In this document: piece by piece, positions 38,082 to 60,215 of the stretch
Position numbering within the stretch: position 1 is the stretch's first letter
Layout of the letters: each line of letters opens with the position of its first letter
DNA from: a virus
Virus record (IMG/VR): IMGVR_UViG_3300025141_000026
DNA length: 64,000 bases
Strand: one strand, 5' to 3'
Made by a program: the position numbers and the translations under genes
Notes under the pieces: generated by a model
What the model saw: only the letters and a program-made list of their open reading frames with translations
Database searches by the model: none
What the model was told of the DNA's origin: nothing

Positions 38082-39932
38082 TTAATCAACAAGATTGTGA
38101 CAAATAACCAATCCGTACATATCAGGACGTACCATCTTCTTAGCATAGCGTGTCATGACACCCTTACGCGGCACGAAGTCTTCCGTACCAAAGATGGTAG
38201 GAGTGACTTGGAGCGGCACGTATGGAGCGTACACATATCCACTTTCTAAGAAGCTTCCACCCTTGCGTCCAACAAGGATGACGTTTCTGATAAAGTAAGG
38301 ATCGACATAAATGTCAAACTTCTTACTAATCTGACCAACTTTTACAGCACCTGCGGAACCCTTTGGAGTGTCAGCAGCAACGCTTGCGCGGAAGCCACTA
38401 GTGAACTCAAGAATGTTCGCAACTTCTGGGGAACAAACTAAGAAGTTTGCGCCACCACGGAGTGTCTTTCTATGGATTTGAGCAGAAACATCATTGACTG
38501 TTTCGATCAAAGTTTCATACCATTCAGACACAGTACCTGTGAAGTCAGGTGGAGTAGTAGTGTTATCAATCTTGACACCAGATTCTCTGTTCAAGAATTG
38601 ACCCGGACGACGTGACCAGTGAAGAGTTGCAGCGGATGCACCCTTTACAAGATCATTGAGCAACTCACGGTCGATTTCAAGAGCAATTTGCTCAGAAAGG
38701 ATGCTTGTAAGCTCAACTTCTGCATCAAGGTTGTGGTAAGCTTGGAGATCTTGTCCAAGTTCTGGAGTCCACTTAGCCTTGAGCTTTTTAGTCACGGCAG
38801 TCACACTAACGGAATCAACTTTGATGTCGATCTCTGGAATAAGGTCAACTTGATTTCCGTTGAATTCACCAGCGGCAGCGGCTGCACCTTCAAGACCCCA
38901 CGGGGAAGTACCTGCAAGTGCTCCAAGTGCATCAGTACCAGCAACCTCAAATGCATCTGCGCGAGCAAAGGCAACTTGTGCGGTGGTACCGACATTGTTA
39001 AGTGCAGCAGACAGGTTAGTTGTCATTGCAGAAGTACCAGCGGAAGCCGTTCCTTCAAAAACAAGAATAATTGAAGTATCCGTTGTGTTTCCAAGGTCAA
39101 GAGCATTTACAGACTTACCAGCGCTAGCAGCACTACGACCCTTGAGTGTGGTCAAGCGGCGGACTTGGCGTCCCTGCTCCATGTCGCCACTACCGGTGTA
39201 TACAACAGTGATAAGATCGTTGCGATTGAATGCACCTTTAAGGTTTGCACAGGTTGCACTAAGGACAACAACAGACTTTCCTTGAAGATCTGGATCGTAA
39301 TTTACGAGATCGCTCAAGTAAGTAGTTGCGCCACCAAGTGAAGCCGGTGTCAAAGCGTTTTCAGCATCGTCATCAACACCAGACCCAACAACACCTTGGG
39401 CAATTTCGGCTACAGAAGCCAATGCCACGGTTCCCGTTGGGGATGAGTAACCATTGTTAAGCGCATAAAAGCTGCGTTCCGCAGCGGCTGCTGCTTTGTT
39501 TCCAGCACCGCCAAGGTTTACGCCGCCTGTAAGCTGTGCTCCGACAACTCCACCACCGTAAAGTGATTCATTCCGCCCTTGATCCAAGCGAGCATTGCTC
39601 AATGTGAAATCAAGGAAGAAAATGAGTCCCGATGGGAGACTCATTGGTTGAACTGAAATAAGTTCGTTAGCAACCAAGCTACCGAATACACGGCGAACGA
39701 TTGGAAATGCTACAGCAGCGAAGCCTTGAACGTCTCCGTGTGCCATGGATGAACTCTCACGAAGAAGTTCCTTCGCTTGGTTCTCTAAGAGGCGTGACAT
39801 AGACGCCTTTGTGCTATCGTTATCTAAACCTTCAAGAAGCCCGGTCTTTTCCCACTTATCAAGCAGGGCAGTACCTTCTTTCTGGAGGTCACGATTAACA
39901 ATACCTTCTGTTAATTTATCTAAAACTGACAT
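38082..39932 (-). CDS. Major capsid protein (gp23-like)
   Basis: LLENQ, PIVRRVF, VQPMSLPSG, KLKAKWTPELGQDL, EIDRE, YAPYVPL, GVMTRY. Confidence 0.96.
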   Translation of the reverse strand: MSVLDKLTEGIVNRDLQKEGTALLDKWEKTGLLEGLDNDSTKASMSRLLENQAKELLRESSSMAHGDVQGFAAVAFPIVRRVFGSLVANELISVQPMSLPSGLIFFLDFTLSNARLDQGRNESLYGGGVVGAQLTGGVNLGGAGNKAAAAAERSFYALNNGYSSPTGTVALASVAEIAQGVVGSGVDDDAENALTPASLGGATTYLSDLVNYDPDLQGKSVVVLSATCANLKGAFNRNDLITVVYTGSGDMEQGRQVRRLTTLKGRSAASAGKSVNALDLGNTTDTSIILVFEGTASAGTSAMTTNLSAALNNVGTTAQVAFARADAFEVAGTDALGALAGTSPWGLEGAAAAAGEFNGNQVDLIPEIDIKVDSVSVTAVTKKLKAKWTPELGQDLQAYHNLDAEVELTSILSEQIALEIDRELLNDLVKGASAATLHWSRRPGQFLNRESGVKIDNTTTPPDFTGTVSEWYETLIETVNDVSAQIHRKTLRGGANFLVCSPEVANILEFTSGFRASVAADTPKGSAGAVKVGQISKKFDIYVDPYFIRNVILVGRKGGSFLESGYVYAPYVPLQVTPTIFGTEDFVPRKGVMTRYAKKMVRPDMYGLVICHNLVD

Positions 39933-39948: not shown

Positions 39949-40968
39949 TTAGTTAATACCAGCTAAAATTTTCATCCTATCCGAATGTGGATTGGAATCC
40001 TTTTCTATCCTTCTAGGTAATGTTGTTGACCTTCTCTCAACTGCCTCGCTAAGTGATTTTGGCGCAACCTTTTTATTTGGTTGTGCTCCCACCGTGCTTT
40101 GAAGTGCCTCGAAAATTGTCTTTGTCTCTTCCACAGAACCAGACTTCATGATTGCCTCGACAATTTTATTCTTTTGTCGCTCATTCAACGAGTCGTCAAC
40201 CAAGACTTGGTTTGTGTAGAGTAGTTTTGCATTCTGAAGATTTACCTCCGTCAAGGTGTTCTTCATTTGCAAAAGCATTTCTTTGTATTTATCGGCTTTC
40301 TCTTCGAGTCGATAAATTTCTTTCTCAGCGCCCTCTAATACCTTTAGAGCTTCGCTGAGATCTTCATCTTCTTTTTCCTCTTCTTCTAGTTCTTTAACGT
40401 CAAGAGGTTCTTCAACTTTAGTTTGAAGAATATCAATTTCATGCTCAACGCTTGAATCTGGTCTTTGTAGCCAGCCAGCCTTTGTAGGCTCCATATCAAG
40501 TGTGAGTTCTTCTAAGATGTCTACAAGTTCTTCTTCAGTGATTTGAATGTCTTCTTCGAGTTCCTCTTCATCAAGACTCTCTGCTAGTGGAGAGTCTAGT
40601 GCGGGAATTCCCCCCCCCGCCTCACTATCTGTCGCCTGCATTTGTTGTGCCAATTGATCGAAGTCAATTTCAACTTCTTCTTCGTCGTCTGGGCATGGGC
40701 ACAGTTTATCACCTTCTGTGGAAGCAAGTGGCATCTGTTGTGCCAGATCCTCGCTGGACTCCAAGCCTCCGTCCAGACCAAGATCACCTTCATCATCGAG
40801 TAGCTCTTCATCTTCAAGGGGGTCCTCTTCGTCTTGTTCCAAAAGTGCTTCAACAGCGTTTTTAATTTCTGATTGGTACTTTTCAATAACGGATTGTTCC
40901 GCATTTTGTAGCGCAGCTTCTTTGAGTGCTTCTGCATCAACAATTGCTTGTTCTAACATATTAGACAT
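39949..40968 (-). CDS. Prohead scaffold protein (gp22-like)
   Basis: Acidic coiled-coil protein directly upstream of the capsid gene; many L-x-E sites. Confidence 0.75.
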   Translation of the reverse strand: MSNMLEQAIVDAEALKEAALQNAEQSVIEKYQSEIKNAVEALLEQDEEDPLEDEELLDDEGDLGLDGGLESSEDLAQQMPLASTEGDKLCPCPDDEEEVEIDFDQLAQQMQATDSEAGGGIPALDSPLAESLDEEELEEDIQITEEELVDILEELTLDMEPTKAGWLQRPDSSVEHEIDILQTKVEEPLDVKELEEEEKEDEDLSEALKVLEGAEKEIYRLEEKADKYKEMLLQMKNTLTEVNLQNAKLLYTNQVLVDDSLNERQKNKIVEAIMKSGSVEETKTIFEALQSTVGAQPNKKVAPKSLSEAVERRSTTLPRRIEKDSNPHSDRMKILAGIN

Positions 40969-43078: not shown

Positions 43079-43681
43079 TTAGTCCTCCAAGACATAATTC
43101 AAAGCACGATTGATTCTATCTGCTTTCGTAAATATTTGTTTTTCAACGCCTTCCTGCAATCCCATATAAGCGCCGGGTGTTGATGGTTCAGAAACAAAGT
43201 CAAAACAAATGAGTTGAAAATCTTCTTGAACCGTTACGGTGCCATTTGTACCTTCAGATACAGAACCAAGACCTCTAGAGGAAATGCCTAGAGAGACACC
43301 GGAGTCAACCAAAGATCGAAGAACGTTGCCTGATGGGGTATCTAATACTTTGACCTTACCCATGACAGAGTTTCCATCCCACCACACATCTGTAACAAGG
43401 TGGGAAGCGTTCTTAAGATTGATTACGGAATCATCTGGGTGGTCTAATTCACCCAAAGCCCTTCGTTCTTTGACAAGCTTGTCATAGTTTTGCATCTCGC
43501 GACGTAATACCTTTTGAGGATATACTCTGCCATTTCCATTTTGAACTTCAGCCTCTTGTAACTTACCGGTAAGAATCATTCCCCCATTAGATACAAATTT
43601 CTTTTCTTCTTCCGTGAGGAGATCTTGGCAAACACCACCTTCACAAAGTTCATAATATTCTCTCAAAAGTTTCTTTGACAT
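43079..43681 (-). CDS. Prohead protease (gp21-like)
   Basis: NGNGRVYP, GELDHP, ASH, LGISSRGLGS, DFVSEPS. Confidence 0.95.
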   Translation of the reverse strand: MSKKLLREYYELCEGGVCQDLLTEEEKKFVSNGGMILTGKLQEAEVQNGNGRVYPQKVLRREMQNYDKLVKERRALGELDHPDDSVINLKNASHLVTDVWWDGNSVMGKVKVLDTPSGNVLRSLVDSGVSLGISSRGLGSVSEGTNGTVTVQEDFQLICFDFVSEPSTPGAYMGLQEGVEKQIFTKADRINRALNYVLED

Positions 43682-44651: not shown

Positions 44652-45475
44652 TAGTCTTGTATCTCTCTAGCTAAGTTTTGCACTCTCAAGACTTTCTTTA
44701 CCATATCCATTGATACGGGGCTTTCCTTAAAAGACTCAAGAATATTGAAAATTGCTTTGCTCTTTTGAAGCATTTCTGTGTCCTCTGATATTTCTTTTAC
44801 ATCGCTGCTTTCGGAAAGAACATTTTTCAATCTTCCGATTTCCTCATTCAAGTATATGTTCAAATCAAGACCATTGTCTGAAAAGGACATGACATATTTT
44901 TTAAGTAGCTTCTTTTGCTCCTCGTGCAGTTCTGCTGATTCGTATTGCTTATTGTATCGCTCAACAAATTTTTTGATTATTAAATTATCGACCTTGCCGC
45001 TCTTGCTTTCTGTCAATTCATTAGAAGAGGTTAGTGTATCTAGAATTGTAGCCTCTAACAAGACTTTCTTTTTTGGGGACAACGAATCATTGAATATTTG
45101 ATGTATTGTTGCTATGCTTTTATAATTTGGCACGAATTGAGAAAATACATCAGGCGTAAGTTCTTTATTGATTTTATTGATTAGAGCACTTTGCTCTTGA
45201 AATATTTTATCTTTGTCCAATTGATTGTACTGACCCTTTGCCTCATAAATCAATTTTTCAGCAATGTACGGCTCAAGCCCTGAATTTTCTTGTAAGGATT
45301 TATAAATTTCTAATTCTTTTTTCAGGAGGGTGCCTTTTCCAAAATGTTCCTTAACAATCTTGCTGATTTTTATTCCATGATCAGATCTTTTCTGTATGAC
45401 GGATTTTGTCAACTCCCTGACCAAAACCTCAAACAAGAATGCGGTATTTCTTTTTTTATTATGCTTTAGCTTCAT
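44651..45475 (-). CDS. Hypothetical helical protein downstream of portal
   Basis: 274-aa coupled ORF. Confidence 0.7.
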   Translation of the reverse strand: MKLKHNKKRNTAFLFEVLVRELTKSVIQKRSDHGIKISKIVKEHFGKGTLLKKELEIYKSLQENSGLEPYIAEKLIYEAKGQYNQLDKDKIFQEQSALINKINKELTPDVFSQFVPNYKSIATIHQIFNDSLSPKKKVLLEATILDTLTSSNELTESKSGKVDNLIIKKFVERYNKQYESAELHEEQKKLLKKYVMSFSDNGLDLNIYLNEEIGRLKNVLSESSDVKEISEDTEMLQKSKAIFNILESFKESPVSMDMVKKVLRVQNLAREIQD

Positions 45476-47396
45476 TATCTTTGGACTCCAATTCGTTTAT
45501 AAGCTTCTTTATTTCTGTATTTACTTCAAAAACTTTTTTTTCTTCGCTTTCATAATTAGCTTCTCGACCTTCGTAAATTCCTTTTGCAAGTTCAAAACCC
45601 GGAAGAATGTCTCTAACACTTCCAATGCTGTCTCCAGCATATTTACTCTTCATGTTTCTTTTGCGATGCCCAGCAGGGTTTTTACTTATGCGCGGAGTGT
45701 AATGCTTTCCTTTTGATTTAGCAGTTGTGGTCATGGTCCTGCCGCTGTCATCTCTTTTAGCTGGAAGTTCTTCTCCGCCGGCGTCAGGTGTTGCTAAGAG
45801 AACGTCATCTTCTCCACCACCCTCGTCGCCTCCAAGGTCTTCGCCACCTCCAAGATCCTCGTCACCCCCAAGGTCGTCGCCTCCAAGGTCTTCTTCACCA
45901 CCTAAGTCGCCACCCATGTCTCCTCCGCCGCCAGCACCTTCGGCAGCAACAGCCTCACCAGCGGCATCAAGAAGAGCTTGTACTTTTCTGTCGTGGAACA
46001 TTTCTCTCTGGACTCGTAGAAACTCCTCATCAGACAAGTTAAAGATGTTTTGTGCAACCCAACGCTTGCTAAAGAACCCTTCTGTTGCGTTAGAAGCAAT
46101 TTCAAATTTAGTTCTCCAGTGTTCAAGCTCTTGTAACTCAGCGATTCTAGAAGGGTTGTTTAGGTATAGCTTGAAAGAAATAAGATCCTCTTGTCTAAAA
46201 CCGAGGGTATAGAGGTGGATGATGCCTATCTTTTCAAGCTCAGTTATAATTGCTCTTTGTAATCTTTGAATGGTTCTGGCAAAGCGAATATCCTTTTGAG
46301 CCAAAGTTGTTTTATCTTCAGCGCCCTCATCTGAAGTTGTCAGATAAGCAGCAGGAATCTTAATTGCTGAAAAAAGTTTGTCTCTCAGGTACTTTACATC
46401 ATCAATATCTCCTGTGTAGCTTCCTCCAGCCAAAGTTTCTATTTTAGAACTTACGTTTCCTCTCGTTGGTATAAAATAATCTTCCTCAACAGACATTGGA
46501 TTATACCTCAGATCAACTCTACCCGTTGCCGGGTCAACAACTTGGTTACGCTTCATCTGAGTCATCACTTTTTGCATGTATTGCTCGATATCTTGCGGAG
46601 CTATATTGCCAACATCAATGTAAAATACACGGCGTTCGGGGGAGCGAACAATTCGGTAAGCCATCATTGCATCTTCAAGGAGGGTGAGTTGCCTCCAGAT
46701 TCTCCGTGCAGGTTCTAATACTGATGTGCCGTATGGAGCATACTTGTCGTTACCTAAAATCCTGAAATGCCCCATTTGCCAGTTCTCAAATGTGAGACCA
46801 CCCGAGTTCCATTGGTATTGGACATAATTCGGATTTGTTTTATCTTCACCTTCGAGTCTTTCAATTTCAGCAGTTGGCAAACCAATTACATTCGTAATTC
46901 CCATCTTTTCATCAATATCAAGATAAAGAAAGTAATCACCAAACTTGCACATTGTTCTGCACCAGCCGAACAAATTATGATCAATGTTTAGGACATTGTG
47001 GTACAATGTCTCTAGAACGGCTTTGATTTCATCATTTGAACAATCAATACGCAAAAGTTCTTGCAGTTCCGAAGATGTCGTCATTTCATCGGCGTAGATA
47101 TCCATTGCAGAAGCCAACTCGGGCATATATTCCATTTGATCAAAATCAGCGTACCTTTCTGCTCTGCTAATGCTCCCCATTACAGAATTCATTGGATAAC
47201 CACTCAGTGGCTCATAGGAGGCTTTCTTGAACGACATCCCGCTGGCTGATGTGAAGTCATATTTGTTCAACTGTGCCCTGCGAAGTCTACGGGGGGTTTG
47301 AGCACGATAATTTACGATTGGTCCAGAAAAAAGTCTGGTTAATCTTTTGAAAAGTGGAGAATTTGCTTGTCTTGGGTTTTTATGTTGGTCAACCAT
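45459..47396 (-). CDS. Portal protein (gp20-like)
   Basis: LEDAMMAYRIVRSPERRVFYIDVGN, EDYFIP, IETLAGG, DDVKY, DIRFAR. Confidence 0.95.
   Translation of the reverse strand: MVDQHKNPRQANSPLFKRLTRLFSGPIVNYRAQTPRRLRRAQLNKYDFTSASGMSFKKASYEPLSGYPMNSVMGSISRAERYADFDQMEYMPELASAMDIYADEMTTSSELQELLRIDCSNDEIKAVLETLYHNVLNIDHNLFGWCRTMCKFGDYFLYLDIDEKMGITNVIGLPTAEIERLEGEDKTNPNYVQYQWNSGGLTFENWQMGHFRILGNDKYAPYGTSVLEPARRIWRQLTLLEDAMMAYRIVRSPERRVFYIDVGNIAPQDIEQYMQKVMTQMKRNQVVDPATGRVDLRYNPMSVEEDYFIPTRGNVSSKIETLAGGSYTGDIDDVKYLRDKLFSAIKIPAAYLTTSDEGAEDKTTLAQKDIRFARTIQRLQRAIITELEKIGIIHLYTLGFRQEDLISFKLYLNNPSRIAELQELEHWRTKFEIASNATEGFFSKRWVAQNIFNLSDEEFLRVQREMFHDRKVQALLDAAGEAVAAEGAGGGGDMGGDLGGEEDLGGDDLGGDEDLGGGEDLGGDEGGGEDDVLLATPDAGGEELPAKRDDSGRTMTTTAKSKGKHYTPRISKNPAGHRKRNMKSKYAGDSIGSVRDILPGFELAKGIYEGREANYESEEKKVFEVNTEIKKLINELESKDNEAKA
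45815..45930. repeat. Degenerate (DLGGxx)n coding repeat in the portal C-terminal tail
   Basis: GGDMGGDLGGEEDLGGDDLGGDEDLGGGEDLGGDEGGG; boundaries approximate. Confidence 0.7.
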
Positions 47397-47402
47397 TTAT
47401 TT

Positions 47403-48986
47403 CTATCCTTTGTAGAGCCATTCAAACTGCTGCTGTTCTTTTATTTTATCACCTTTTTTCACTTCTTTATACCCCTTTTGCCCCGGTATAGTGGTGTTGA
47501 GTGATGTTTTGGTAGAGATCATAGAACTAATAAACGCTTTATTATATTCCATAGCTCTTTTATTTGTTGCTAGTGCAGTATCTTTTACCCAACAAGCAAT
47601 TGCGATACTCATGGTCAAATCATCATTATAACCTCGCATCGCCTGAGCCCTACCATTATTCCAAATAAAAGTTCTCAGTTCATTAACTAAGCGAACTGAA
47701 CGTAAAGTAATTAGTTGATTTCTTACGAATTCCTCTAGTTTAGCGATAATTAGTGGTCTAGTTTTCATTGACGTAGTAAAACCAGCCACAGTGTTGGATT
47801 GATGCTCTGCAATCACTTGCTCGATATATTCATGAGTGGACTTGACTGAGTAGTACAAGTTGGGATATTCATATTCATTTGTTAGTTTTTCCAATACAGA
47901 AAAGCCAATATTGTTATTCTCAACCACAACGAGGCATTCACCATATTCTCTTCCGGTTTGGCTTAAGAGACTAGCGTACATTTCCAGATTTGGCTTTCCT
48001 TGATATTCAGCTACCTGCTCCATGGTGTCTACGTTAATAACATGAAAAGCAGAGTGGTCTCTCCCATCGCCTCTCGCGACGTCAGCCACCAACACGTAAC
48101 TAGCGCCAGTTTGATATGGCTCCCAGATCCACAAGTTTCTATCAAAGCCTGTTTTATATTTTGGTTCGCAAATAGTATGCTCTTCCATATTACTAATATC
48201 TTCTGGGTGTATGACGGATTCGCCAGACGTATTGAAATTGCACTCAAGCTCTTGAGCAATCTGCCTTCGAGACATATTCCGAGTTTCTTTATCGAACCAC
48301 TGCTTATCTCTATCTGGATGTGCATCCCATGGTAACACTGTTGGATGAAAATCATTATTTTGTGTCTCTGAGTCGGAATAGGTCTGGTGGAACCAGTTAC
48401 CAACACCATTAGGGGTAGAAAGTGCGATGCAACGACCACCGGTGGACAGTGTGGGATACAAACCAGTCCATAATTCATCTAGACCCTCGACGTGGGCTGC
48501 CTCATCAACAACAAGTAATGACAGTGCTTCCGAACGACCGGCGTCACCAGATGTCGAAGAAGCTTTGATCTGGGATCCATTACTAAGCTCAAATGACGCT
48601 CTATTGTCAATTGAAACGTCAGCTATTCGGACCCATGGGGGAAGGTTTTTTATCATGCTTTTTACCTTTTTTACAAGGTTTGTTGCGGTTCCAAATTTGG
48701 TTGCAATAACAAGAATGTTTTTATCTCGGTGAAACACCATCATCCAAGCAACATAGGCGGCAACAATGGTAGAGATACCAAGCTGTCTTGCTTTTAGAAC
48801 GATATTGAATCGATAATCATTAAAGTCTTCTAGCAGATCTGCTTGAAAGTCAAAGGTCTTGAAAGGTATTTGCCCTTCAAGGGGGTGTGAAATTTTTACA
48901 TAATTGTTTATGAAGTGTGTGGGGTCTTTGCCACATTTGATAATCTCTTGGACTATTTGTTTTTTCGATAATTGGTATCCAGCCAT
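47403..48986 (-). CDS. Terminase large subunit (gp17-like)
   Basis: KARQLGIST, LVVDEAAH, LSTPNG, QELECNF, ADVARG, VENN, NDDL. Start probably ATG 48986. Confidence 0.95.
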   Translation of the reverse strand: MAGYQLSKKQIVQEIIKCGKDPTHFINNYVKISHPLEGQIPFKTFDFQADLLEDFNDYRFNIVLKARQLGISTIVAAYVAWMMVFHRDKNILVIATKFGTATNLVKKVKSMIKNLPPWVRIADVSIDNRASFELSNGSQIKASSTSGDAGRSEALSLLVVDEAAHVEGLDELWTGLYPTLSTGGRCIALSTPNGVGNWFHQTYSDSETQNNDFHPTVLPWDAHPDRDKQWFDKETRNMSRRQIAQELECNFNTSGESVIHPEDISNMEEHTICEPKYKTGFDRNLWIWEPYQTGASYVLVADVARGDGRDHSAFHVINVDTMEQVAEYQGKPNLEMYASLLSQTGREYGECLVVVENNNIGFSVLEKLTNEYEYPNLYYSVKSTHEYIEQVIAEHQSNTVAGFTTSMKTRPLIIAKLEEFVRNQLITLRSVRLVNELRTFIWNNGRAQAMRGYNDDLTMSIAIACWVKDTALATNKRAMEYNKAFISSMISTKTSLNTTIPGQKGYKEVKKGDKIKEQQQFEWLYKG

Positions 48987-48987
48987 C

Positions 48988-50001
48988 TCATGACCTTTGT
49001 TCTTCAAATAGTTTTGCTAATTGATTTTTAGTGTATCCTCTGCGATTAAGTTGTCTAGCCAACATCTTGGTGGTTCTACTGATGAGCTTTTGGAGCTTTT
49101 GTTCGTCACGCACAATGTTTTGTAGCCCGGAATCTTTGCTCAACAATTCTTCATTATCAATTAGAAATCTAGCGACAATCTTTCCTATTGTTGTTGCATC
49201 TTTTTCATAGCCTACAAGATTGCATTTATCGTGCGGCTCTGACCGATCTGGAAATTTGTCAGCACTTGAGGCAAACTCTCCGCCGGAGATTGGTTTGCAG
49301 GAGTCGGGGTTAACTCTTTGAGCCACTGTGGAGTCATTTTGGTTTTCAGGGTCTAATACAACGACTGAGGTTTTCTTTCCTTTGTCGGTAGTGTACACAT
49401 ATGATTTGCCTTTTTGTACCTGCTCCTGTTCGTGTAGCATTGTTGCAACTTCAGCAACCGGTATCTTTTTACCGCCCAAATATTTTGCAACCTGTTGTGC
49501 GATAGCCACGGCAGACGCTTTATCAAGTCCCGCTTGCTGGAAATATTGCGCTAAACTTGTTTCGCCTTTTTGTCCGGGTCTTACAACAGAAACTGGTGTC
49601 TTCTTGCCGGGAGCCGAGGCTGCCCTTTTTGCACCTTGCTCACCAGAACATTTATCAATAGGCTTGCCAGCTTGGTCGGCAAAGGCTTCTGGCTTTGCTG
49701 CAAATTCACTTCCTTTTTTCGGAGCACATGTGTTGGGATCGATCTTTATGGCTGCTGTGTAACCATTATCATTTTCCGGATCAACAACCGTTACAGCAGA
49801 TTTGTTTCCAGTTTTTGATGTGTATACAAAGCTGTCGCCTTTTTCAATGTTGTCTTCACTGCCCTCTTCAGCGTCAGACGGTTTATCGCCTTCGTCATCG
49901 CCTTCTCCGGAGCCTTTTACTCTGCCCACGGCGGCTTTGAACCTATCAAGGAAGCCTCTTACGTCTTCCTCTATCATTTCTCTTGTTAGTTGATCGCTCA
50001 T
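48988..50001 (-). CDS. Hypothetical protein with a duplicated ~65-aa domain
   Basis: Two copies of KGxSxVYT..G.K..V.V.DPEN.N..T.A....P..C....G.EFA.....F.......DKC. Confidence 0.7.
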   Translation of the reverse strand: MSDQLTREMIEEDVRGFLDRFKAAVGRVKGSGEGDDEGDKPSDAEEGSEDNIEKGDSFVYTSKTGNKSAVTVVDPENDNGYTAAIKIDPNTCAPKKGSEFAAKPEAFADQAGKPIDKCSGEQGAKRAASAPGKKTPVSVVRPGQKGETSLAQYFQQAGLDKASAVAIAQQVAKYLGGKKIPVAEVATMLHEQEQVQKGKSYVYTTDKGKKTSVVVLDPENQNDSTVAQRVNPDSCKPISGGEFASSADKFPDRSEPHDKCNLVGYEKDATTIGKIVARFLIDNEELLSKDSGLQNIVRDEQKLQKLISRTTKMLARQLNRRGYTKNQLAKLFEEQRS

Positions 50002-51016: not shown

Positions 51017-51928
51017 TTATACTTCTATTTTATCTAGCTTTTCACTTATAAGTTTTAATTTATTTTCTAAATCGGATATCTTTTTATCTTGTTCTTTTAC
51101 GCCCTCGACCAAAAAAGAAATAATGCGTATGTAATCCATACTATTAGCAAATTCAGAGTCGGCTGACCACTCTACAATTTCTGGTAATACTTTTCCGACC
51201 TCTTCTGCAATGAAGCCATAATCCTTTTTCCCTGTGTCCTTCCAATTATAAGAAACTCCATTGAGTTTGTTGAGAGTTCTGATCGGATTGTCTAAAGGTT
51301 CTATATTTTTTTTGAACCTGATAGAAGAATAGGAGACAAAAGCATTCGCCTTGACTTTTCCAGACACGTCGCTCGTGTCCGGTAGGGTTAGCCCATGAGT
51401 GGCAGATGGTGTGCCGATTGCTAAATGCTTGTCTATGTGGATAACCGCTCCGGACAAAACAAGCCCTCCAGTGGAGGAACCTGATATAACTAAAGAGTTT
51501 GTGTCACTGTAAAATATTCTTGCCTCATTGTTTGGACCAAAATTAAATGAACCTGCGGATCCGGTGCTTGTAAACTGAAGTTCTCCTCCAATTTTGAGGG
51601 GGGACGCACCCTCTAAAGTTCCAGCAATTTGAATTGTAGAACCTGACAGCACAATTCCGTTGCTTGACCCGGAAATCACTAGGAAGTCATCGCCATTTTC
51701 ATTATACTCTATGAAGGCATCATCATTGGTTCCAAAGACCAACTTAGTATCATCGGAGATTTTTAAGTCTGTTTCATCAAAGGTGAAAGATGGGACACCA
51801 CGAGAGGCTCCAGATCGATTGTACTGTATTTGCTCACTATCTCCACCCGCAGCAGTGCTGTCAAAAGCTTGCTCTTTTCTACGAATGTAATTTTGAAGCT
51901 GTCCAAGGGTTCTAAATCTTCTAGCCAT
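51017..51928 (-). CDS. Tail fibre/spike with C-terminal intramolecular chaperone (peptidase S74)
   Basis: SSIRFKKNI, GFIAEEV...PEIV, MDY, terminal coiled coil. Confidence 0.8.
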   Translation of the reverse strand: MARRFRTLGQLQNYIRRKEQAFDSTAAGGDSEQIQYNRSGASRGVPSFTFDETDLKISDDTKLVFGTNDDAFIEYNENGDDFLVISGSSNGIVLSGSTIQIAGTLEGASPLKIGGELQFTSTGSAGSFNFGPNNEARIFYSDTNSLVISGSSTGGLVLSGAVIHIDKHLAIGTPSATHGLTLPDTSDVSGKVKANAFVSYSSIRFKKNIEPLDNPIRTLNKLNGVSYNWKDTGKKDYGFIAEEVGKVLPEIVEWSADSEFANSMDYIRIISFLVEGVKEQDKKISDLENKLKLISEKLDKIEV

Positions 51929-52364
51929 CGTTCTTTATCTCCACCGCGATTGCAAACACGGATATAGATATAATTATGCCGCCAAGTACCCCACCAGCCA
52001 ACCACCAGTGAGAATAATCATTGGGCGATTCAAGGGCTAGCTCTTGAAGTCTGCCAATTTCTTCATCTTTTATGGTTATAAGTTGGTCGTATCTTTTTGT
52101 TGCAGACTTCAATTTTATGTCGCTAATCTGTAAATCAAGCTCCAGTTGTGCGGATAGCAGCTTTATTTCTCTGTCTATCTCTAAGCGACATTCTTCTACG
52201 GTGTATTTCTTATCGGTAAGAACTTTAGCTGCTGCCGTTGGGTCCATTAGAACACCGGTAAAAGGTGCAGGATCTCCTTTTTTCAATTCAGTTATAACTC
52301 CCTCTTGTGCCCAAGCAGGGAAAGCAAAGAGTATAACTAAAAATATGGATAGTAGTTGTTTCAT
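51921..52364 (-). CDS. Exported coiled-coil protein with C-terminal TM (spanin-like candidate)
   Basis: Signal peptide ending AWA; coiled coil; C-terminal hydrophobic helix. Confidence 0.55.
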   Translation of the reverse strand: MKQLLSIFLVILFAFPAWAQEGVITELKKGDPAPFTGVLMDPTAAAKVLTDKKYTVEECRLEIDREIKLLSAQLELDLQISDIKLKSATKRYDQLITIKDEEIGRLQELALESPNDYSHWWLAGGVLGGIIISISVFAIAVEIKNDG

Positions 52365-52876
52365 TTTAGCCTCCACCGCCATTTTCCTTTTCCATCTTCA
52401 TCGTTTCCATCTTCATCGCTGGTGTCTATTTGCACTGCCCGTTTTTCTTTTTCTAGTCTCGCCCAAACGCCTTTGCCGTCTTCTGTCTGTGCTTTGTCGC
52501 TATACAGGCTTCCTTTGCCGAGGACTTCCATAACTTTTTCATACAAATCAGTAGCATAAAAGCCACCACCCTTTACTTTGCGAACATTACCAACAGCATA
52601 ACTTTCTCTAAATGGGGCAACGCCTAGATAAGCAATAGGGATGTCTTCTTTATTCACAACAAAAAAGAGCACATCGCCTTTGGGCAACTCAAAACTTACC
52701 AACTGGTTTCCTTCCCACTCTCCAAGATCTTTTCTCTCACCTTTACTTGGGGCGTGTTCTTTATAAAAGTAATCAAGCGACTTTTGTATTTCTTCCTGAG
52801 AAGTAGCAATAGTATCAAAAGCCTCTACCTCGTCTATGAACCTTTTCCAGTTTTCAAGTAGTTGTTTCATTTTAGC
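52351..52876. repeat. 20-bp perfect direct repeat pair (52351-52370, 52857-52876) flanking one gene
   Basis: agtagttgtttcattttagc at both positions. Confidence 0.9.
52361..52870 (-). CDS. Leader-bearing cargo 7: GNAT-like acetyltransferase
   Basis: Leader MKQLLENWKRFIDE; KGGGFYATDLY...LYSD..QT..G..VW resembles the GNAT acetyl-CoA loop. Confidence 0.55.
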   Translation of the reverse strand: MKQLLENWKRFIDEVEAFDTIATSQEEIQKSLDYFYKEHAPSKGERKDLGEWEGNQLVSFELPKGDVLFFVVNKEDIPIAYLGVAPFRESYAVGNVRKVKGGGFYATDLYEKVMEVLGKGSLYSDKAQTEDGKGVWARLEKEKRAVQIDTSDEDGNDEDGKGKWRWRLK

Positions 52877-53154
52877 ATTTCTCTAAACTTAGGATCGTAA
52901 AGCAATCCATCAAGTTGCGATGAGTATCCCTTATCAATAAGAAGATCAATCAAAGAATCAACATCCATTTCGTTTTTTGATGCGACGGAAGCAAAATAAT
53001 CTTTGAGTTGACCAAACAACTCTTCCTCTTCCACTTCTCCGCTATAAAAGCGGTCAACCAACTCATCCGTAATCACACCAAGTTCTTGCGGAGTGTTAGC
53101 ACCAAGTCTAATCTCATTTATGTATTTGTTCCAGTTTTCAAGTATTAGTTTCAT
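52867..53154 (-). CDS. Leader-bearing cargo 6: unknown acidic domain
   Basis: Leader MKLILENWNKYINE. Confidence 0.65.
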   Translation of the reverse strand: MKLILENWNKYINEIRLGANTPQELGVITDELVDRFYSGEVEEEELFGQLKDYFASVASKNEMDVDSLIDLLIDKGYSSQLDGLLYDPKFREMLK

Positions 53155-53783
53155 TTTTTTACTAACTCCTTATTTACGATATCATAGCCTTCCACAACGC
53201 CCACATTCACATAGTCAAAGCCGTCGAGGAGGCATATTTTTTGTGGTCCGAACTTGCCGCCCAACTTATAGTATGTGCTGACCTGCCCTACCACCTCTGT
53301 GAATAGCGCTGGTATTGCTTTTTCTGGAAGGGTTTTTAGATGCGTGTTGTATGCTGCTAACTCTCCCCTTAGATCAAACTCGGTTCCACGAGAACCAATC
53401 GCTTGGATGTGGGACATATAATCGTGGATTGCTCTAAACTTTGCGTTTGTAATCTCATCAAAAATGGCGTGATCTGCGTCAATAGTGGCGACCCTCATAG
53501 TGCCCGTGCTCTTAACATCTTTCCTTAGTTCGTCTGCGCTTTCATATGGATGGTAATCAACGAACTCAACATCTACCTTAGACTGGATTTGATTGAACAT
53601 CTTCTCAACAAAAGGAGTTAATGCTTCGTAGTGGGGGACTGCTCTTTGTTCAAAATCAGGAGCAGCAAGGTAGGCAGTACCCACCAAATCAGCATACTTA
53701 GTCCAACCGTTCTCTCCGGGTTTAAGCATTAGCTTCTCGTTGATTGCGATGAACTTTCGCCATTCTGTTAGTAGTTCTTTCAT
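53151..53783 (-). CDS. Leader-bearing cargo 5: putative metal-binding enzyme
   Basis: Leader MKELLTEWRKFIAINE; FRAIHDYMSH...GE..AY..H...TE..GQ. Confidence 0.6.
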   Translation of the reverse strand: MKELLTEWRKFIAINEKLMLKPGENGWTKYADLVGTAYLAAPDFEQRAVPHYEALTPFVEKMFNQIQSKVDVEFVDYHPYESADELRKDVKSTGTMRVATIDADHAIFDEITNAKFRAIHDYMSHIQAIGSRGTEFDLRGELAAYNTHLKTLPEKAIPALFTEVVGQVSTYYKLGGKFGPQKICLLDGFDYVNVGVVEGYDIVNKELVKK

Positions 53784-54190
53784 CTATATTCCTCGCTCCA
53801 ATCAAATCTATTTTCACCGCTATAAACATGTCTAAGATAGTTACTGTGGGAGCCACTGTATACATAAGCATCAAAATAGTCTTCGCCATTCAGCCACTTT
53901 TGAAAGATCCTGTGATTGCCGTCATCAATAATTAATTGTTGTTTGTCTGTATTATAAAAAAGAACTGGTAAGCCTTCTGTCATACTAAGTTCTTCCTTTC
54001 TTACATCCCCTATTATGTGCTCGCCTTGGGATTTAAGCATACTGAGTGATTTCATTGGGATATCCTTGACTAAGACCCCTTCTTCTCCCTCTTCTTCGTC
54101 AAACTCTTCTTCACCACGGATGACTTCATCGGGAAGAAAATCTAAATTCTCTTTCAAAAAGTTTCGCCACTCTGTTAGTATCTCTTTCAT
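53780..54190 (-). CDS. Leader-bearing cargo 4: ParB/sulfiredoxin-like domain
   Basis: Leader MKEILTEWRNFLKE; LPVL...IIDDGNHR. Confidence 0.6.
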   Translation of the reverse strand: MKEILTEWRNFLKENLDFLPDEVIRGEEEFDEEEGEEGVLVKDIPMKSLSMLKSQGEHIIGDVRKEELSMTEGLPVLFYNTDKQQLIIDDGNHRIFQKWLNGEDYFDAYVYSGSHSNYLRHVYSGENRFDWSEEYR

Positions 54191-54783
54191 TAGTAGTCCT
54201 CTGGGTTTTCATCTGTGATGACAACATTTTTGTTTGTCTTTGCCTCAACCCAATCTCTCACAAAGTCGTCAACATCTTTAATCTCAGACATTCTTGTTTC
54301 AGGAGAAAGCCCCCCTAAATACTTTCTATAATCGCTGTCGATCTCATCCATCACTTTCGGGTCTATTGTGTCTGATAGGTGTGGATCTACATCAAGAAGA
54401 TCCAGAACAATGTTCTCTGGACGGAAAAAGCTTTTTCTATCTTTTGGCTCTTTGCTATCGATCCAATTAAACAACCTTATAAGCAGGGCGTTTCCAGATT
54501 CTTTTGTTTTCTTTGCTGCCTTTTTTGCACCTCTTGACTTTGCGGCGACATTGATCGCGGACACGGCTGGACTAAGTTGGGCGATGCCACTAAGTTGGGC
54601 GACACCTTCAACCCCAACTGCCTTGAACATCTCTTCTTTTGCTTGTTGATCTTCTACAAAATCAGACATGCCCATATAAAGATCACTAAACCGAGCGATT
54701 GTCCAATCTTTTGGATACCTTTCAGCAAAAGATTTTCTTTCTTCCTCTATGAATTTTCTCCATTCTGTTAGTAGTTCTTTCAT
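54190..54783 (-). CDS. Leader-bearing cargo 3: unknown domain
   Basis: Leader MKELLTEWRKFIEE. Confidence 0.65.
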   Translation of the reverse strand: MKELLTEWRKFIEEERKSFAERYPKDWTIARFSDLYMGMSDFVEDQQAKEEMFKAVGVEGVAQLSGIAQLSPAVSAINVAAKSRGAKKAAKKTKESGNALLIRLFNWIDSKEPKDRKSFFRPENIVLDLLDVDPHLSDTIDPKVMDEIDSDYRKYLGGLSPETRMSEIKDVDDFVRDWVEAKTNKNVVITDENPEDY

Positions 54784-55229
54784 TTCTTTCTCCTCTAAAA
54801 CTTATGCAAGATTGGGGCAAACTGTCTCAATGCTTCTGGTGATCTGCCTACGGTTAGGATCCTCTTTGCCAAGATTTGTCCGGCTTCCTCATCTTGCCCT
54901 TCTTCAACCCACTTCTGAAAAGACTTCTCAATCCACTCACCAAAGGTAGCCATATCATCAGCAAACTGCACAGGGTCATCAACACCCTGAAACGACCGTT
55001 TTAGTTGTCTGGCTTTTGCACTAACGGTTCCCATTTCTCTACTCCAACTGGAGCCTTCGTACCTGTCATAATCTATTTGTGTGCCGCCATCAATCGCATT
55101 CGTGATGGTGTCTGCTGCCTCCAATGTTCCGGCGATATCCTCTTCAGAGAATTCAGCAGAGTATGATTCATTTATAAACTTTCGCCATTCTGTTAGTAGT
55201 TCTTTCATTCTTTATCCTCTAAAACTTAT
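54760..55229. repeat. ~45-bp near-perfect direct repeat pair (54760-54805, 55185-55229) flanking one gene
   Basis: ccattctgttagtagttctttcatt(t)cttt[c/a]tcctctaaaacttat; spans upstream gene end, stop, RBS and leader. Confidence 0.9.
54795..55208 (-). CDS. Leader-bearing cargo 2: unknown domain
   Basis: Leader MKELLTEWRKFINE. Confidence 0.65.
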   Translation of the reverse strand: MKELLTEWRKFINESYSAEFSEEDIAGTLEAADTITNAIDGGTQIDYDRYEGSSWSREMGTVSAKARQLKRSFQGVDDPVQFADDMATFGEWIEKSFQKWVEEGQDEEAGQILAKRILTVGRSPEALRQFAPILHKF

Positions 55230-55722
55230 CCAGTTGTGCTCCCAAGGCTACAAGCATGTTGCCTGTCTCATCTTCTGCGATCCGTCGCAAAATCTTATGT
55301 GCCTTTGATTGCAGAATATTTTCATAATCTTCTGTATTGTTTATCTCTATCATCTCATCCACATTTCTTTCCAGCCAATCAACAAAGGTTTTTAGTGCCT
55401 TTGCTTTGTCCTCGTCTTCTTCTTGGACTTCGTGGTTCTCAAACCAGATGGAAGTGTAGTCAAGTATTTTACGCATCTCTGGTCTAACATACCTCTCTCC
55501 TTCTCCGGGCGAACGCTTAGTCGGCGCAAAGAACCTGAGATCCTTGGCTTCATCTGGGTATAGAAATGCATACATGGTGAAGACTTTATTGAGTACAGCG
55601 TCCATTAGATTATCCAATGTCGTATCTGGTTTGGCAAAGAAATCTCTGGACGACTGTTCTCTATCATAGACATCCTCGTATTCATTTACAAACTTTCGCC
55701 ACTCTGTTAATAGTTCTTTCAT
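55219..55722 (-). CDS. Leader-bearing cargo 1: unknown domain
   Basis: Leader MKELLTEWRKFVNE. Confidence 0.65.
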   Translation of the reverse strand: MKELLTEWRKFVNEYEDVYDREQSSRDFFAKPDTTLDNLMDAVLNKVFTMYAFLYPDEAKDLRFFAPTKRSPGEGERYVRPEMRKILDYTSIWFENHEVQEEDEDKAKALKTFVDWLERNVDEMIEINNTEDYENILQSKAHKILRRIAEDETGNMLVALGAQLDKF

Positions 55723-56114
55723 CCTTTATCCTCCGCCCAGAGTTGTCTCATATGGTCAGGAATTGGGACTGGCTCTCCATCTCCATCAATACGAACAAAA
55801 GTAATCTGTGTTGAGCAAACTGTCTTCTGTGTGCCATTGTAAACACTATGCCTTCTGGCTTCTAGGTTTATCACAACAGACGTGTTGCCCATTTTCTCGA
55901 CTTCGCCATAGATCTTAATAATTTGAGTTGGTCTTGCCGGTGCAGTAAATACAACTTCTGACATGTGAACGGTAACCATTCTTGGTGTACCACATATTTC
56001 TGATGCAAAAGCAACTCCTGCCTCATCTAGCCAAGCTAGCATCTGACCTCCGAAGAGATTACCATGATAGCCTAAGTGCTGAGTCATGACTTTATGTGTC
56101 GATATAAGTTTCAT
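55719..56114 (-). CDS. Acyl-CoA thioesterase (HotDog fold, YciA-like)
   Basis: HGNLFGGQMLAWLDEAG, MVTV, F..P, GNTS, TFVRID..G.P.P. Confidence 0.85.
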   Translation of the reverse strand: MKLISTHKVMTQHLGYHGNLFGGQMLAWLDEAGVAFASEICGTPRMVTVHMSEVVFTAPARPTQIIKIYGEVEKMGNTSVVINLEARRHSVYNGTQKTVCSTQITFVRIDGDGEPVPIPDHMRQLWAEDKG

Positions 56115-57065: not shown

Positions 57066-60000
57066 TTACTGAGATACAAAAGCGAATCCATCATTTTTCT
57101 CAATTTCAATAGTGGTATCAGCAATGTCCTTCAGGCTATCGACATGCGAGATCAACAAAACTATCTGATAGTAGTTCTTGACCATATCCACAATACGAAC
57201 AAAACCTTCCATGTTTTCCGCATCAAGGGCTGTTGCTGGTTCGTCAAGAATAAATAGGTTGGATTTAGGCAATGACGACACAGAAAGCAGCGCTAGTCTG
57301 ATTGCCATTGCAGCAATTGTTTTCTCAGCGCCAGATCCCATCTCAATAGGTCGTGGGTCATGCTTGGGGTGCTTGATAAAGATGTCAAGCTTGTTGCCAT
57401 CATTTTCAAAGAAGACCTCAAAGTCAACAACGTTAGCCAACACCTTTGAAATCTCATCATTGATGATTGGCAACCTCTTCTTAATAATATCATACGAGAT
57501 GCCATTAGAGTGCATGCAACGCATAAACAAATCATAAGCAGTATACTTGGTTCTTAGATCCTCCAAGTTTGCCTGTTGCTCAACCAAGTTGTTGAGCCGT
57601 TGTTCCAAAGAGCCATGCTGCTTATAAAGTTCTAAGATTTCGTTTCTGCATTCTTCGTATTCTTGTTTTTCTCTCTCCATTCTTTCTGTAGCCGCTCTTT
57701 TCTCTCCTGAAAGAATTTCCAGATTTTCAATAACTTCTTTGTTCTCTTCATATTCATTGATCTTTGCCTCCAGTTCTTTTATTTCAACTTCTAAATTTGT
57801 TTTTTTGGACTTGCTCTTCTCTATGTCAAGCTCAATACGAGCCATCTCATTTGAGAGATTGTTCTTCTTCTCGACAACCTTGTTGTATTTGGCTAAATGG
57901 CTGTCCACAATATCTGGCTGTAGGGTGCCGATATCCTTTTCTATTTTCTCCTTGTTGTTGTTGAGGAGGGTAATCTTCTTCTTGCTTTCTGGAAGAAGTT
58001 TTTTATGTGTATAAGCGTCTCGTATAAACCTACAATGAGAAAACTCAGAACCACAAGGGACTTCTGATAAGAGTGCGACTTTCTTTTCAATTCCTTCTTG
58101 CTCCCTTTCCTCTATACTTATTTCTGAAATGATATTATCGAGATCTTTTCCCTTGTCATTAATAAGTTCTTTTTTAGTTTCTAGTTCATCAATATCAAAG
58201 TTATCCAAAAACTGAATTATCTTTTGGTAATGGTCTAGCTTTTGTTTGTGCTGATCCTTCTTTTCGGATATGTCAATGTCAGCGATTTGTAGTTCGTTGG
58301 ACTTGATTTCTTTATCCTCCACGACCTTTACAATATTTATGATGCTTGCTGGCATTGACTCAATCTTTTTTGTCAAGGCAGTAATTTCATTGCGTATCTC
58401 TTCAATCTGGACTTTGTATGCGGCACAGGCTTTCTTTTGTTCTTCAGTTCTTCCAGCATTGTCGTTTAACAATAGTTGAGCAGCCTTGATGTCCTCATCA
58501 TAGTCTTTGCCCTCTAGTGTTTTCAGAGCACCTCGAAGATCTGATGCATCATCTTTTGCTAGCTTGAACTTCTTTTCAAAGATATCCAAATCCAAAAACT
58601 TTGCTAAGATTTCTTTACGTTTTGTAGATCCTTCATTGATGTATGAAAGAGATCCCATCTGAGATGACATAGAGGTCATTAGGAAGTCATCCATTGTCCC
58701 CAAGACCTTTTTGATATTTTTGTCGGTCTCATTTCTTGTGGTGCCATTTAGAACATCTATATCTTGTGTAATCAAGTTTTGTTTTGTAAACTCAGTCTTT
58801 GTTTTAGCTTCAAGCGTCTCTTCGCCCTTCAGCTTTTTGAGATACTTCTCTGACTCTCTATGGATGCTGTACGTGTCATCCCCAACAGATATCTCAACAT
58901 CTGCGGAACACATTTGCTTGTTCTGGTTGATTATGTTGAGATTCTTTCTCTCGTTTTTAGATGTGGAATTATACATCCCATAAAGCAGTCCGTCGATGAT
59001 GGAAGACTTACCAGAGAAGTTCTTGCCAAAAACTCCCACGACCCCATTCAACTTGGTGAAATCAATGGAGTTTCCTTCTCCATAATTGAACAGGTTATCC
59101 CAAGAAAACTTTCTTAGATTCCAATTTACGTTCCTTGTGATCTCCTCTTCTTCTTCAGCAACGGCATTGTATTTTCTATTAAGCTCATAAACCTTTTCTA
59201 AGGTCTGATCGTTAGCTTCATAGTCTTTGAGATACTCATCAATGAACTCTTCCTGAACAGCTATGTCACGAAGGTCCTCTTTTTTCAAGGTGTGGGTCAT
59301 ATGGTCAACGCTAGAGTTGCCACTCGCACGATTCAAGAATGTGATTGACTCTGGCTTGAACTTGGATTTAGCAACATCAATAGCCTTTCTCATCACATCG
59401 AGAGGAAGGTTATTGTTTGTAGCCAAACGAAGTCTTGAGCCGTTTGGAAATGATAGAGATCTAGGGATCTTGCCCTTCGGTGTCAAGTCGATTGTAATAA
59501 ACGGCTTAGGATTCAAAAGCACATGGTGCTTGCATGTATAGTTATCCTTGTCCTTTACATCCCATACCAGATATCCCTTGTCGTTCGTTTCTCCAAAGTT
59601 TTGCTGGACTGTTGATCCCGCATAGCGGATCTTACCTTTTGCATCGAGGGTTTGGTTGGTCTTGTGGATATCCCCAAGGAAAGCATAATCAAAATTATTA
59701 AAAATAGAAATGTCATAGTCGCCATAGTCCATTGTCCATCCGATGTCGGTTTGGCAACCGCTGATGGAACCGTGATAGAGAGCAATATTTACTCTATCAT
59801 AATTAGTTGGCTCGACCCAATTATCGGTATCAAACACAGACAAAACATTCAAAGCAAAATTGTCATTTATGACAGTTTCGCCTGACTCTTTAAGTAAATG
59901 TATGCTTGGGTGCGCCAGCGCTTCCACGATTGGGGTGATGGCATCTTGACGACTACTGTTCTTTAGATTGCCATCGTGGTTTCCCAAGATAATATAAGTT

Positions 60001-60215
60001 GGCGCAATGTCACCTAGACTGCGAAAGAAGTCGGTTGCCATCTCCACAAACTCTGGTGAGATCTGGGTCTTGGTGTGGGCAATGTCGCCACAATGGATAA
60101 TACAATCCACCTTTTGTTTTCTCAGCTTTTTGTACATCTGTTTGAATACTTCTTTATATTCAAAGTGATATTTCAGATTGCGGATATGGGTATCCGCTAT
60201 ATGAGCAAATCTCAT
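57066..60215 (-). CDS. SbcD-SbcC (Mre11-Rad50, gp47-gp46) fusion nuclease/ATPase
   Basis: ADTH, GD, GNHD, GDIH; then GKNFSGKSS, coiled coil, SGAE signature, LDEP, ISH in one ORF. Confidence 0.9.
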   Translation of the reverse strand: MRFAHIADTHIRNLKYHFEYKEVFKQMYKKLRKQKVDCIIHCGDIAHTKTQISPEFVEMATDFFRSLGDIAPTYIILGNHDGNLKNSSRQDAITPIVEALAHPSIHLLKESGETVINDNFALNVLSVFDTDNWVEPTNYDRVNIALYHGSISGCQTDIGWTMDYGDYDISIFNNFDYAFLGDIHKTNQTLDAKGKIRYAGSTVQQNFGETNDKGYLVWDVKDKDNYTCKHHVLLNPKPFITIDLTPKGKIPRSLSFPNGSRLRLATNNNLPLDVMRKAIDVAKSKFKPESITFLNRASGNSSVDHMTHTLKKEDLRDIAVQEEFIDEYLKDYEANDQTLEKVYELNRKYNAVAEEEEEITRNVNWNLRKFSWDNLFNYGEGNSIDFTKLNGVVGVFGKNFSGKSSIIDGLLYGMYNSTSKNERKNLNIINQNKQMCSADVEISVGDDTYSIHRESEKYLKKLKGEETLEAKTKTEFTKQNLITQDIDVLNGTTRNETDKNIKKVLGTMDDFLMTSMSSQMGSLSYINEGSTKRKEILAKFLDLDIFEKKFKLAKDDASDLRGALKTLEGKDYDEDIKAAQLLLNDNAGRTEEQKKACAAYKVQIEEIRNEITALTKKIESMPASIINIVKVVEDKEIKSNELQIADIDISEKKDQHKQKLDHYQKIIQFLDNFDIDELETKKELINDKGKDLDNIISEISIEEREQEGIEKKVALLSEVPCGSEFSHCRFIRDAYTHKKLLPESKKKITLLNNNKEKIEKDIGTLQPDIVDSHLAKYNKVVEKKNNLSNEMARIELDIEKSKSKKTNLEVEIKELEAKINEYEENKEVIENLEILSGEKRAATERMEREKQEYEECRNEILELYKQHGSLEQRLNNLVEQQANLEDLRTKYTAYDLFMRCMHSNGISYDIIKKRLPIINDEISKVLANVVDFEVFFENDGNKLDIFIKHPKHDPRPIEMGSGAEKTIAAMAIRLALLSVSSLPKSNLFILDEPATALDAENMEGFVRIVDMVKNYYQIVLLISHVDSLKDIADTTIEIEKNDGFAFVSQ

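Follow-up and report, generated by a model that had tools for sequence, protein, structure and literature searches.

Mullaney and Black are said to have described, in 1996, the capsid-targeting sequence (CTS) of the internal proteins of bacteriophage T4. According to the T4 record, MKTYQEFIAE followed by Ala is the start of both ipII and ipIII, and ipI begins with MKTFKEF and carries ITE before its known mature start. The CTS drives packaging, and it is the only common part of the internal proteins of the T-even phages, which form a diverse, defence-countering set (PMC3012670). It is removed from IPI, IPII, IPIII and Alt by the gp21 prohead protease (PMC3012670, PMC5694885), which in Alt cuts after ITE and LTE (PMC5694885). 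IPI blocks GmrSD, and IPIII is needed on E. coli ECOR17 (bioRxiv 10.1101/2022.04.14.488369). Head and ejection propeptides of the phages phiKZ, 201phi2-1 and SPN3US are cut by gp21-related proteases (PMC5694885, PMC7411985). Here we describe an array of seven tandem open reading frames (ORFs), running from 55722 to 52361 on the minus strand of the IMG/VR virus record IMGVR_UViG_3300025141_000026, each of which carries one common 14-residue leader at its N-terminus (cargo genes 1–7; Table 1). The whole stretch of 64,000 nucleotides that was analysed is called the window and, judging from its genes, is a distant T4-like phage.

The leader has the consensus MK-x-LL-(T/E)-(E/N)-W-(R/K)-x-(F/Y)-(I/L/V)-x-E. 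A first-pass annotation of the window had listed the seven genes with their N-termini; all the ORFs were found on the minus strand with exactly those starts, and the start that the annotation gave for T4 ipIII likewise agrees with the T4 record. Its statement that every leader ends in [IVL]-x-E is true of all seven, including gene 5 despite a two-residue insertion (the individual endings are given in Table 1). Consecutive genes either overlap by 4 nucleotides (nt), at ATGA, or are separated by 10–12 nt containing a ribosome-binding site (RBS). A loose motif search in all six frames of the window found the seven array leaders and zero other copies. A hidden Markov model (HMM) built from 110 distinct leaders scored the seven array genes at 23.4–28.7 bits, the next best ORF of the window reaching 3.7 bits. 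The shared leader is real and far from chance. Its hydrophobic moment of 0.60–0.63 lies in the top 1–3% of shuffled sequences, making it strongly amphipathic, and in the AlphaFold2 (AF2) models of genes 4 and 5 it is an N-terminal helix apart from the body, predicted with lower confidence.

A degenerate DNA pattern of the leader retrieved at least 120 stretches from IMG/VR. The loci fetched there, together with the window, contain at least 160 tagged reading frames, whose bodies, counting the 158 with 50 residues or more, fall into at least 81 BLAST clusters. The same pattern retrieved six stretches from prokaryote genomes (596 Gb), all of them in metagenome-assembled genomes (MAGs; five short contigs and one MAG chromosome), and the tagged proteins encoded there resemble the IMG/VR cargo. 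When the core motif was sought without a start codon, Met was found at position −3 in 219 of 240 matches, and about 11 more had GTG, TTG or ATT. The carrier genomes with a completeness of 90% or more (n = 7) measure 179–203 kb and contain one to eight tagged genes each, on a single strand and mostly clustered; a control with the reversed pattern in these seven genomes gave zero matches. The carriers form one clade, since the capsid proteins of thirteen carrier records are 48–75% identical to that of the window. The tag is N-terminal, almost confined to viral DNA, and found in one clade of phages with an S77 protease. Regarding cultured phages and earlier reports, full tagged proteins compared with 50,697 phage records gave zero tagged homologues, a tblastn search with a 20-residue leader query, which is probably too short, gave zero cultured carriers, the leader pattern was not found in Flavobacterium phage immuto or in two huge uncultured phages, and six leader strings were not found in the literature searched. 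A virion proteome of a carrier and RNA runs containing the region were looked for as well, with zero finds.

Two of the MAG stretches deserve a separate mention. The chromosome CP070664.1, from a MAG of candidate division WOR-3 (2.8 Mb), encodes at 1747–1788 a tagged protein of a family also present in loci L066, L075 and L110; it may come from an integrated element or an assembly error, or it may point to the host. The 116-kb contig NHHP01000006.1, from a MAG of Candidatus Pelagibacter sp. TMED166, has one tagged gene. It is probably a phage contig that was binned with the MAG, and it may also hint at the host.

The junction between leader and body is the most telling evidence for reading the leader as a propeptide of the T4 kind. 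Three sets of junctions were free of the bias of the IMG/VR pattern, which demanded Glu at codon 14: the tagged frames without Glu14, the gene-5 homologues and the gene-6 homologues. Glu14 is missing from 12 tagged frames, and in 11 of these [ILVM]-x-E follows no more than five residues further on, the background frequency of the motif being 1.8% per position. The gene-5 homologues were found via the body (n = 120), and those that bear the leader end it in [LIM]-x-E, directly adjoining the point where conservation of the body begins; many of them contain a five-residue extension, E-x-[LI]-x-E, which results in two tandem sites. An exhaustive search for homologues of the gene-6 body found it behind the main leader, behind a different leader (MKITKRQLRRIIQEE...), behind an N-terminally extended leader, or fused to an upstream cargo. 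Six of the seven gene-6 homologues listed have [LIV]-x-E before the body (INE, LSE, LNE, ITE, VSE and INE), and the remaining one has AVE. A motif that is kept through insertion, leader replacement and fusion would be the expected look of a protease site. Concerning the fusions, the metagenomic protein P0297 consists of a tagged cargo of another family joined to a gene-6 body, with V-S-E at the internal junction, and it may be a polyprotein that is cut into two cargos.

Our favoured reading, with a probability of roughly 0.55, is that the leader is a capsid-targeting propeptide in the style of T4, that the S77 protease removes it, and that it heads an array of shuffled cargo. The amphipathic N-terminal helix would bind the assembling prohead core, and a protein fused behind it would become enclosed in the head. 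The gp21-family serine protease would cut after the terminal [LIV]-x-Glu, releasing the mature cargo, which would stay among the packaged DNA and enter the host along with it. The seven genes would then represent one array of interchangeable cassettes. A candidate for the processing enzyme is encoded in the window: the gp21-like protease named in the first-pass annotation is real. It scores 116 bits against Peptidase_S77 (cut-off 27), is 36% identical to T4 gp21 in an alignment of 168 residues, and retains counterparts of the catalytic His85 and Ser140 of gp21. The annotation had also proposed a modular payload locus. Here the sequence supports a T4-like propeptide on shuffled cargo, and from this we infer packaging by core binding, cleavage, presence in the virion, ejection, and a role in host takeover or anti-defence.

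Several observations weigh against this interpretation. The motif [ILVM]-x-E occupies positions 12–14 in 148 of 160 leaders, a figure that is partly obtained by construction, as the IMG/VR pattern demanded Glu at codon 14. Peptidase_S77 is found in all seven near-complete carriers (90% or more), which is weak evidence because, to our knowledge, every T4-like phage has this protease. The resemblance of the leader to the T4 CTS (MKTYQEFIAE) is a pattern of four positions plus the initial MK and, the peptide being short, it has no statistical support. The cargo bodies are acidic on average, with about −4.9 net charges per 100 residues, and some tagged proteins are longer than 800 residues (up to 824), a size that is awkward for ejection. 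Finally, the array follows recombination genes within a long operon whose genes all point the same way, and it has no recognisable late promoter.

This last point concerns the time of expression. The late-promoter string TATAAATA is absent from the array; NATAAATA is found upstream of 5% of the leader genes, against 1.3% in the background, and mostly inside the RBS GAGGATAAAG. The operon may start early, because its best sigma-70-like site, a strong one, lies upstream of the array at 60809–60781. Such timing, in an array that follows early-type genes (the Mre11/Rad50 fusion and the thioesterase), would suit a leader recognised by some enzyme or protease that has nothing to do with the head, serving either as a site of modification or as a degradation signal that controls the timing of early proteins. 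Many tagged bodies are, in addition, enzymes that would be expected early, such as the kinase, the S-AdoMet lyase and the NUDIX protein. We nevertheless consider this explanation improbable: the terminal motif is the known specificity of the gp21 family, injection would let the same enzymes act earliest of all, and among the neighbour families of 97 loci no partner enzyme is linked to the arrays, a distant partner still being possible.

The bodies behind the leader are unrelated to each other, as the first-pass annotation had claimed. In an all-against-all BLAST comparison the seven bodies of the array form seven separate clusters. Profiles of the gene 4, gene 5 and gene 7 families, built from metagenomic homologues (n = 35, 41 and 42, respectively), were compared by hhalign, and only 15–20 columns, those of the leader, could be aligned (E 4e-7 to 4e-6). 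The AF2 models of the gene 4 and gene 5 bodies also differ, the first matching exclusively chains of the ParB/sulfiredoxin (Srx) fold and the second having no fold match, and the tagged relatives bear unrelated Pfam domains. The tandem arrangement and the common start could have been left by a series of diverged paralogues with the leader as merely their best-kept part, which is what the annotation itself had named as a reason to abandon its proposal. In view of these comparisons, that explanation is largely refuted and retains almost no probability.

The cassettes are also not fixed in their order. The body clusters of the window follow each other as 4-7-10-17-6-81-25, and in relatives the order is 4-10 (locus L001), 4-7 (L002), 10-7-4 (L003), 7-39-38 (L019), 26-42-43-25 (L026), 17-58-59 (L063), 9-6-65 (L084) and 68-13-6 (L092); the body of cargo gene 1 (cluster 4) has tagged orthologues in IMG/VR loci L001, L002, L003 and L005. 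As far as these gene orders tell, cassettes are gained, lost and reordered singly among relatives. Leaders of different bodies are more similar within the same contig than between contigs (0.67 vs 0.53), and this fits either co-evolution with a partner encoded in the genome or an exchange of leaders inside the genome. Junctions of RBS and leader recur in relatives, and leader DNAs inside the window are identical at up to 39 of 42 nt. Some metagenome contigs covering the array have joints at leader boundaries, with flanks of 25–31 nt, and these joints are weak evidence of exchange, the leaders being repeats.

The recurrent junctions, the near-identical leader DNAs and the contig joints with their short flanks would also be expected if the conserved element worked as nucleic acid, as a translation-initiation enhancer or as a site for cassette recombination, the peptide being incidental. 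The codons speak clearly against it. In 148 distinct leader DNAs, the Leu and Arg residues that are conserved are encoded by five or six different synonymous codons, with the amino acid unchanged. Trp8, for which only one codon exists, varies hardly or not at all, and the same is true of Glu14. From this pattern of substitution, selection on the leader acts at the level of the protein, and a role as nucleic acid is very improbable. Recombination through the leader repeats is plausible as a consequence of the tag, not as its reason.

The same IMG/VR loci contain a second class of leader. Nineteen more frames with diverse bodies, including some in L072, L115 and L048, have a start resembling MK(I/L)TK(S/T)QLKQIIKEE, always at the N-terminus. 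In the window the only protein of this type is the small head-module protein that is encoded next to the protease (42653–43078), whose start MRKSDLKRLIKP resembles the class peptide MKITKSQLKQIIKEE; ten genomes of the clade were examined, and in three of them its orthologue has the start MKK(S/N)(E/D)LK(Q/K)(L/I)(I/L)KP. One homologue of gene 6 bears the second class of leader in place of the main one. From this swap and from the likeness to the head-module protein, the leaders of the cargo seem to be interchangeable, one class copying the start of a conserved protein of the head module.

Shared N-termini on unrelated genes are also found in Flavobacterium phage immuto (MW353176.1), the closest cultured relative by capsid protein, and they are its own. 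The peptide MENFDLKKFLVENKLT is carried by five genes (starts 1803, 103762, 117587, 118588 and 125197) and ends in L-V-E, and MKKSQLRxIIKE is carried by another five (starts 81481, 102250, 102836, 113144 and 123311). Some of the genes with shared N-termini are located inside the head module. This phage is a possible bench model.

The leader, being amphipathic and containing Trp, Phe and basic residues, could also be a docking or sorting tag that the head protease does not remove, directed to another part of the virion, to a membrane at which proheads assemble, or to a hub protein. The greater similarity of leaders within a contig would follow for any partner encoded by the genome. Moreover, the domain of gene 5 is also present within gp205 of Rhodococcus phage E3, a large protein of 858 residues deposited as ‘structural protein’, the gene of which adjoins a tail-fibre gene. 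A docking tag would, however, leave unexplained why [LIV]-x-E is retained through insertions, leader swaps and fusions, and why the second class copies the N-terminus of a head-module protein. No conserved partner gene is found nearby, the commonest neighbour family occurring in 25 of 97 loci. We regard a docking tag as unlikely, and we continue with the cargo under the interpretation of a capsid-targeting propeptide.

Three of the seven bodies gave some indication of their nature. For gene 4, which the first-pass annotation had called ParB/Srx-like, the fold bears out the claim. The AF2 model has a predicted local distance difference test (pLDDT) score of 86, and the list obtained with Foldseek consists exclusively of proteins with the ParB/Srx fold (probability 0.93 and E 1e-2 for Srx). 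With VIA-align, 10 of 48,161 chains reached Z of at least 2, all of them with this fold, the best Srx chain showing Z 5.7 and a root mean square deviation of 4.0 over 80 aligned residues. Residues D90-G-N-H-R94 are invariant across 35 sequences, and a motif of the DGxHR type is typical of the ParB/Srx fold. Gene 4 had zero matches in Pfam at E≤1, ParB-type models included, and the assignment of its body to the ParB/sulfiredoxin fold is supported by the predicted model at the level of the fold only.

No other cargo is as widespread as that of gene 5, which is found in over 300 metagenome clusters and corresponds to phrog_3170 in PHROGs (E 5e-24). The annotation had taken its HDxxxH motif for that of a metalloenzyme. 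The motif itself stands, as H120, D121 and H125 are invariant in the family, in a domain that is confidently modelled (pLDDT 87), the leader being a detached helix of low confidence. The enzymatic part of the claim found no supporting fold match: Foldseek gave E>0.9, and in VIA-align Z did not exceed 3.9, the weak and scattered matches including ArdC, YbeY and minimal zincins. Gene 5 has no match in Pfam and no sequence match in the PDB. As for gene 7, which has 104 homologue clusters, the GNAT-like reading of the annotation lacks support from Pfam and from a profile search of PDB sequences, which yielded no relevant match, and it survives only as a lead from the ESM embedding, where the protein lies at 0.94 to clusters with a partial GNAT annotation. 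Genes 1, 2, 3 and 6 belong to no family in Pfam, PHROGs or NCBIfam, and an ESM embedding search with gene 3 gave no lead.

More can be said of the tagged proteins in relatives of the clade. Above the Pfam cut-off they include a protein kinase, S-AdoMet lyase, NUDIX, DUF192, PGDYG, a C45-type acyltransferase and GNAT, and there are also a borderline RNase_T match and weak HAD-like matches. These enzyme domains suggest an anti-defence or takeover role for the seven genes of the window, which at this point is a reasonable guess.

We hold tentatively, at somewhat less than even odds, that both classes of leader act as a general address label, by which an abundant marine T4-like clade loads dozens of enzymes into its heads and injects them before gene expression. 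Candidates for injection would be the ParB/Srx-like protein and, on tagged relatives, the protein kinase, the S-AdoMet lyase, the NUDIX protein and the HAD-like phosphatases. If this is true, metagenomes alone could be enough to list the injected effectors of uncultured phages, and the principle of the T4 internal proteins would grow from three small proteins to an open-ended, enzyme-rich cargo library of ocean phages. It would also provide a shortlist of candidate first-strike factors for counter-defence and host takeover, as well as a new portable peptide for putting foreign proteins into capsids. Whatever the destination of the proteins, a tag found only in viruses and on more than 80 protein families calls for an explanation.

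All the large genes of the window are on the minus strand, and the array is placed between a recombination block and a packaging and head block. Its upstream neighbours are a gene in which Mre11-like and Rad50-like parts are fused, small membrane proteins, and a 4HBT thioesterase; downstream it is followed by a protein with a signal peptide, a tail-fibre-like gene and the terminase. The fusion (57066–60215, minus strand) is one gene for a protein of 1049 residues containing an Mre11-like phosphoesterase and a Rad50/SMC-like ATPase, for which T4 has the separate genes 47 and 46. The 4HBT thioesterase (55719–56114, minus strand; Pfam E 2e-15), an unusual gene in a phage, overlaps the start of cargo gene 1 and has no leader. 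The protein of 153 residues encoded directly downstream of the array (51921–52382, minus strand) begins with a signal peptide (AWA-QEG), has a coiled region in the middle and ends in a membrane helix, and it is conserved beside tagged genes in seven loci. A gene at 60990–61373 had been considered as kin of a tagged family, a link that failed in pairwise BLAST.

Within the head module, the acidic product of 39949..40968 is a probable prohead core or scaffold protein that would be degraded by the protease; it contains 21 [LIV]-x-E sites. The N-terminal 59 residues of the capsid protein contain four L-x-E motifs, kept in ten members of the clade, and the last of them, L-(R/K/Q)-E at residue 59, is placed like the region of the maturation site in T4 gp23. 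Among cultured phages, identity to this capsid protein reaches 47% at best, the nearest proteins being those of Flavobacterium phage immuto and Microcystis phage Mel-JY01. The capsid N-terminus (LLDKWEKTGLLE) was discarded as a look-alike of the leader, the resemblance being by eye only and the leader HMM giving it no score.

Table 1. Genes of the tagged array and of the packaging and head block in the window.
Feature	Position	Strand	Remarks
Cargo gene 1	55219..55722	-	167 aa; leader is the first 14 codons (55681-55722) and ends in VNE; body without known family
Cargo gene 2	54795..55208	-	137 aa; leader ends in INE; body without family; body cluster 7
Cargo gene 3	54190..54783	-	197 aa; leader ends in IEE; body without family; body cluster 10
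Cargo gene 4	53780..54190	-	136 aa; leader (LKE), acidic linker, then putative ParB/sulfiredoxin-fold domain
Cargo gene 5	53151..53783	-	210 aa; leader with 2-residue insertion, ends in INE; invariant H120-D121, H125
Cargo gene 6	52867..53154	-	95 aa, acidic; leader ends in INE
Cargo gene 7	52361..52870	-	169 aa; leader ends in IDE; GNAT-like reading unconfirmed
Large terminase	47403-49007	-	
Portal, gp20-like	45459..47396	-	
Prohead protease, T4 gp21 family (Peptidase_S77, PF03420)	43079..43681	-	Proposed processing enzyme
Small head-module protein, 141 residues	42653..43078	-	Directly downstream of the protease; N-terminus MRKSDLKRLIKP...
Acidic scaffold-like protein	39949..40968	-	From position and composition only; no family match
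Major capsid protein, gp23 family	38082..39932	-	N-terminal propeptide region

The giant phages phiKZ, 201phi2-1 and SPN3US are comparable in that many of their head-internal proteins have N-terminal propeptides with x-x-Glu motifs at the end, a propeptide can contain several cleavage sites, and N-termini can be identical between diverged paralogues. In contrast, the motif in the giant phages is (S/A/G)-x-E, their propeptides are long and mostly specific to one protein, and their protease belongs to S80 instead of S77.

The resemblance to T4 is closer. Like the leader described here, the T4 CTS is short and N-terminal, starts with MK, precedes unrelated small proteins and ends in [L/I]-x-Glu, and the two can be placed in register, with an aromatic residue at P7, Phe or Tyr at P4, Ile or Leu at P3 and Glu at P1. 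In both cases a gp21 homologue is encoded and the set of cargo varies between relatives. In the T4 record, the N-terminus of the scaffold protein gp22 (MLKEQLIAEA) resembles the CTS (MKTYQEFIAEA), both with the ending IAE-A, and this likeness parallels that between the second leader class and the head-module protein of the window. On the other hand, the leader of the window has 14 residues instead of 10 and an invariant Trp, and it shows no detectable sequence homology to the CTS; the carriers are a distant lineage of uncultured marine T4-like phages of 180–200 kb; and the repertoire of cargo is far larger, with at least 81 body clusters, recognisable enzyme domains and a second, interchangeable class of leader. 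The principle is known from the T-even phages, and what is new here is a longer and different tag, its second class, the clade that carries it, and a larger, enzyme-rich cargo.

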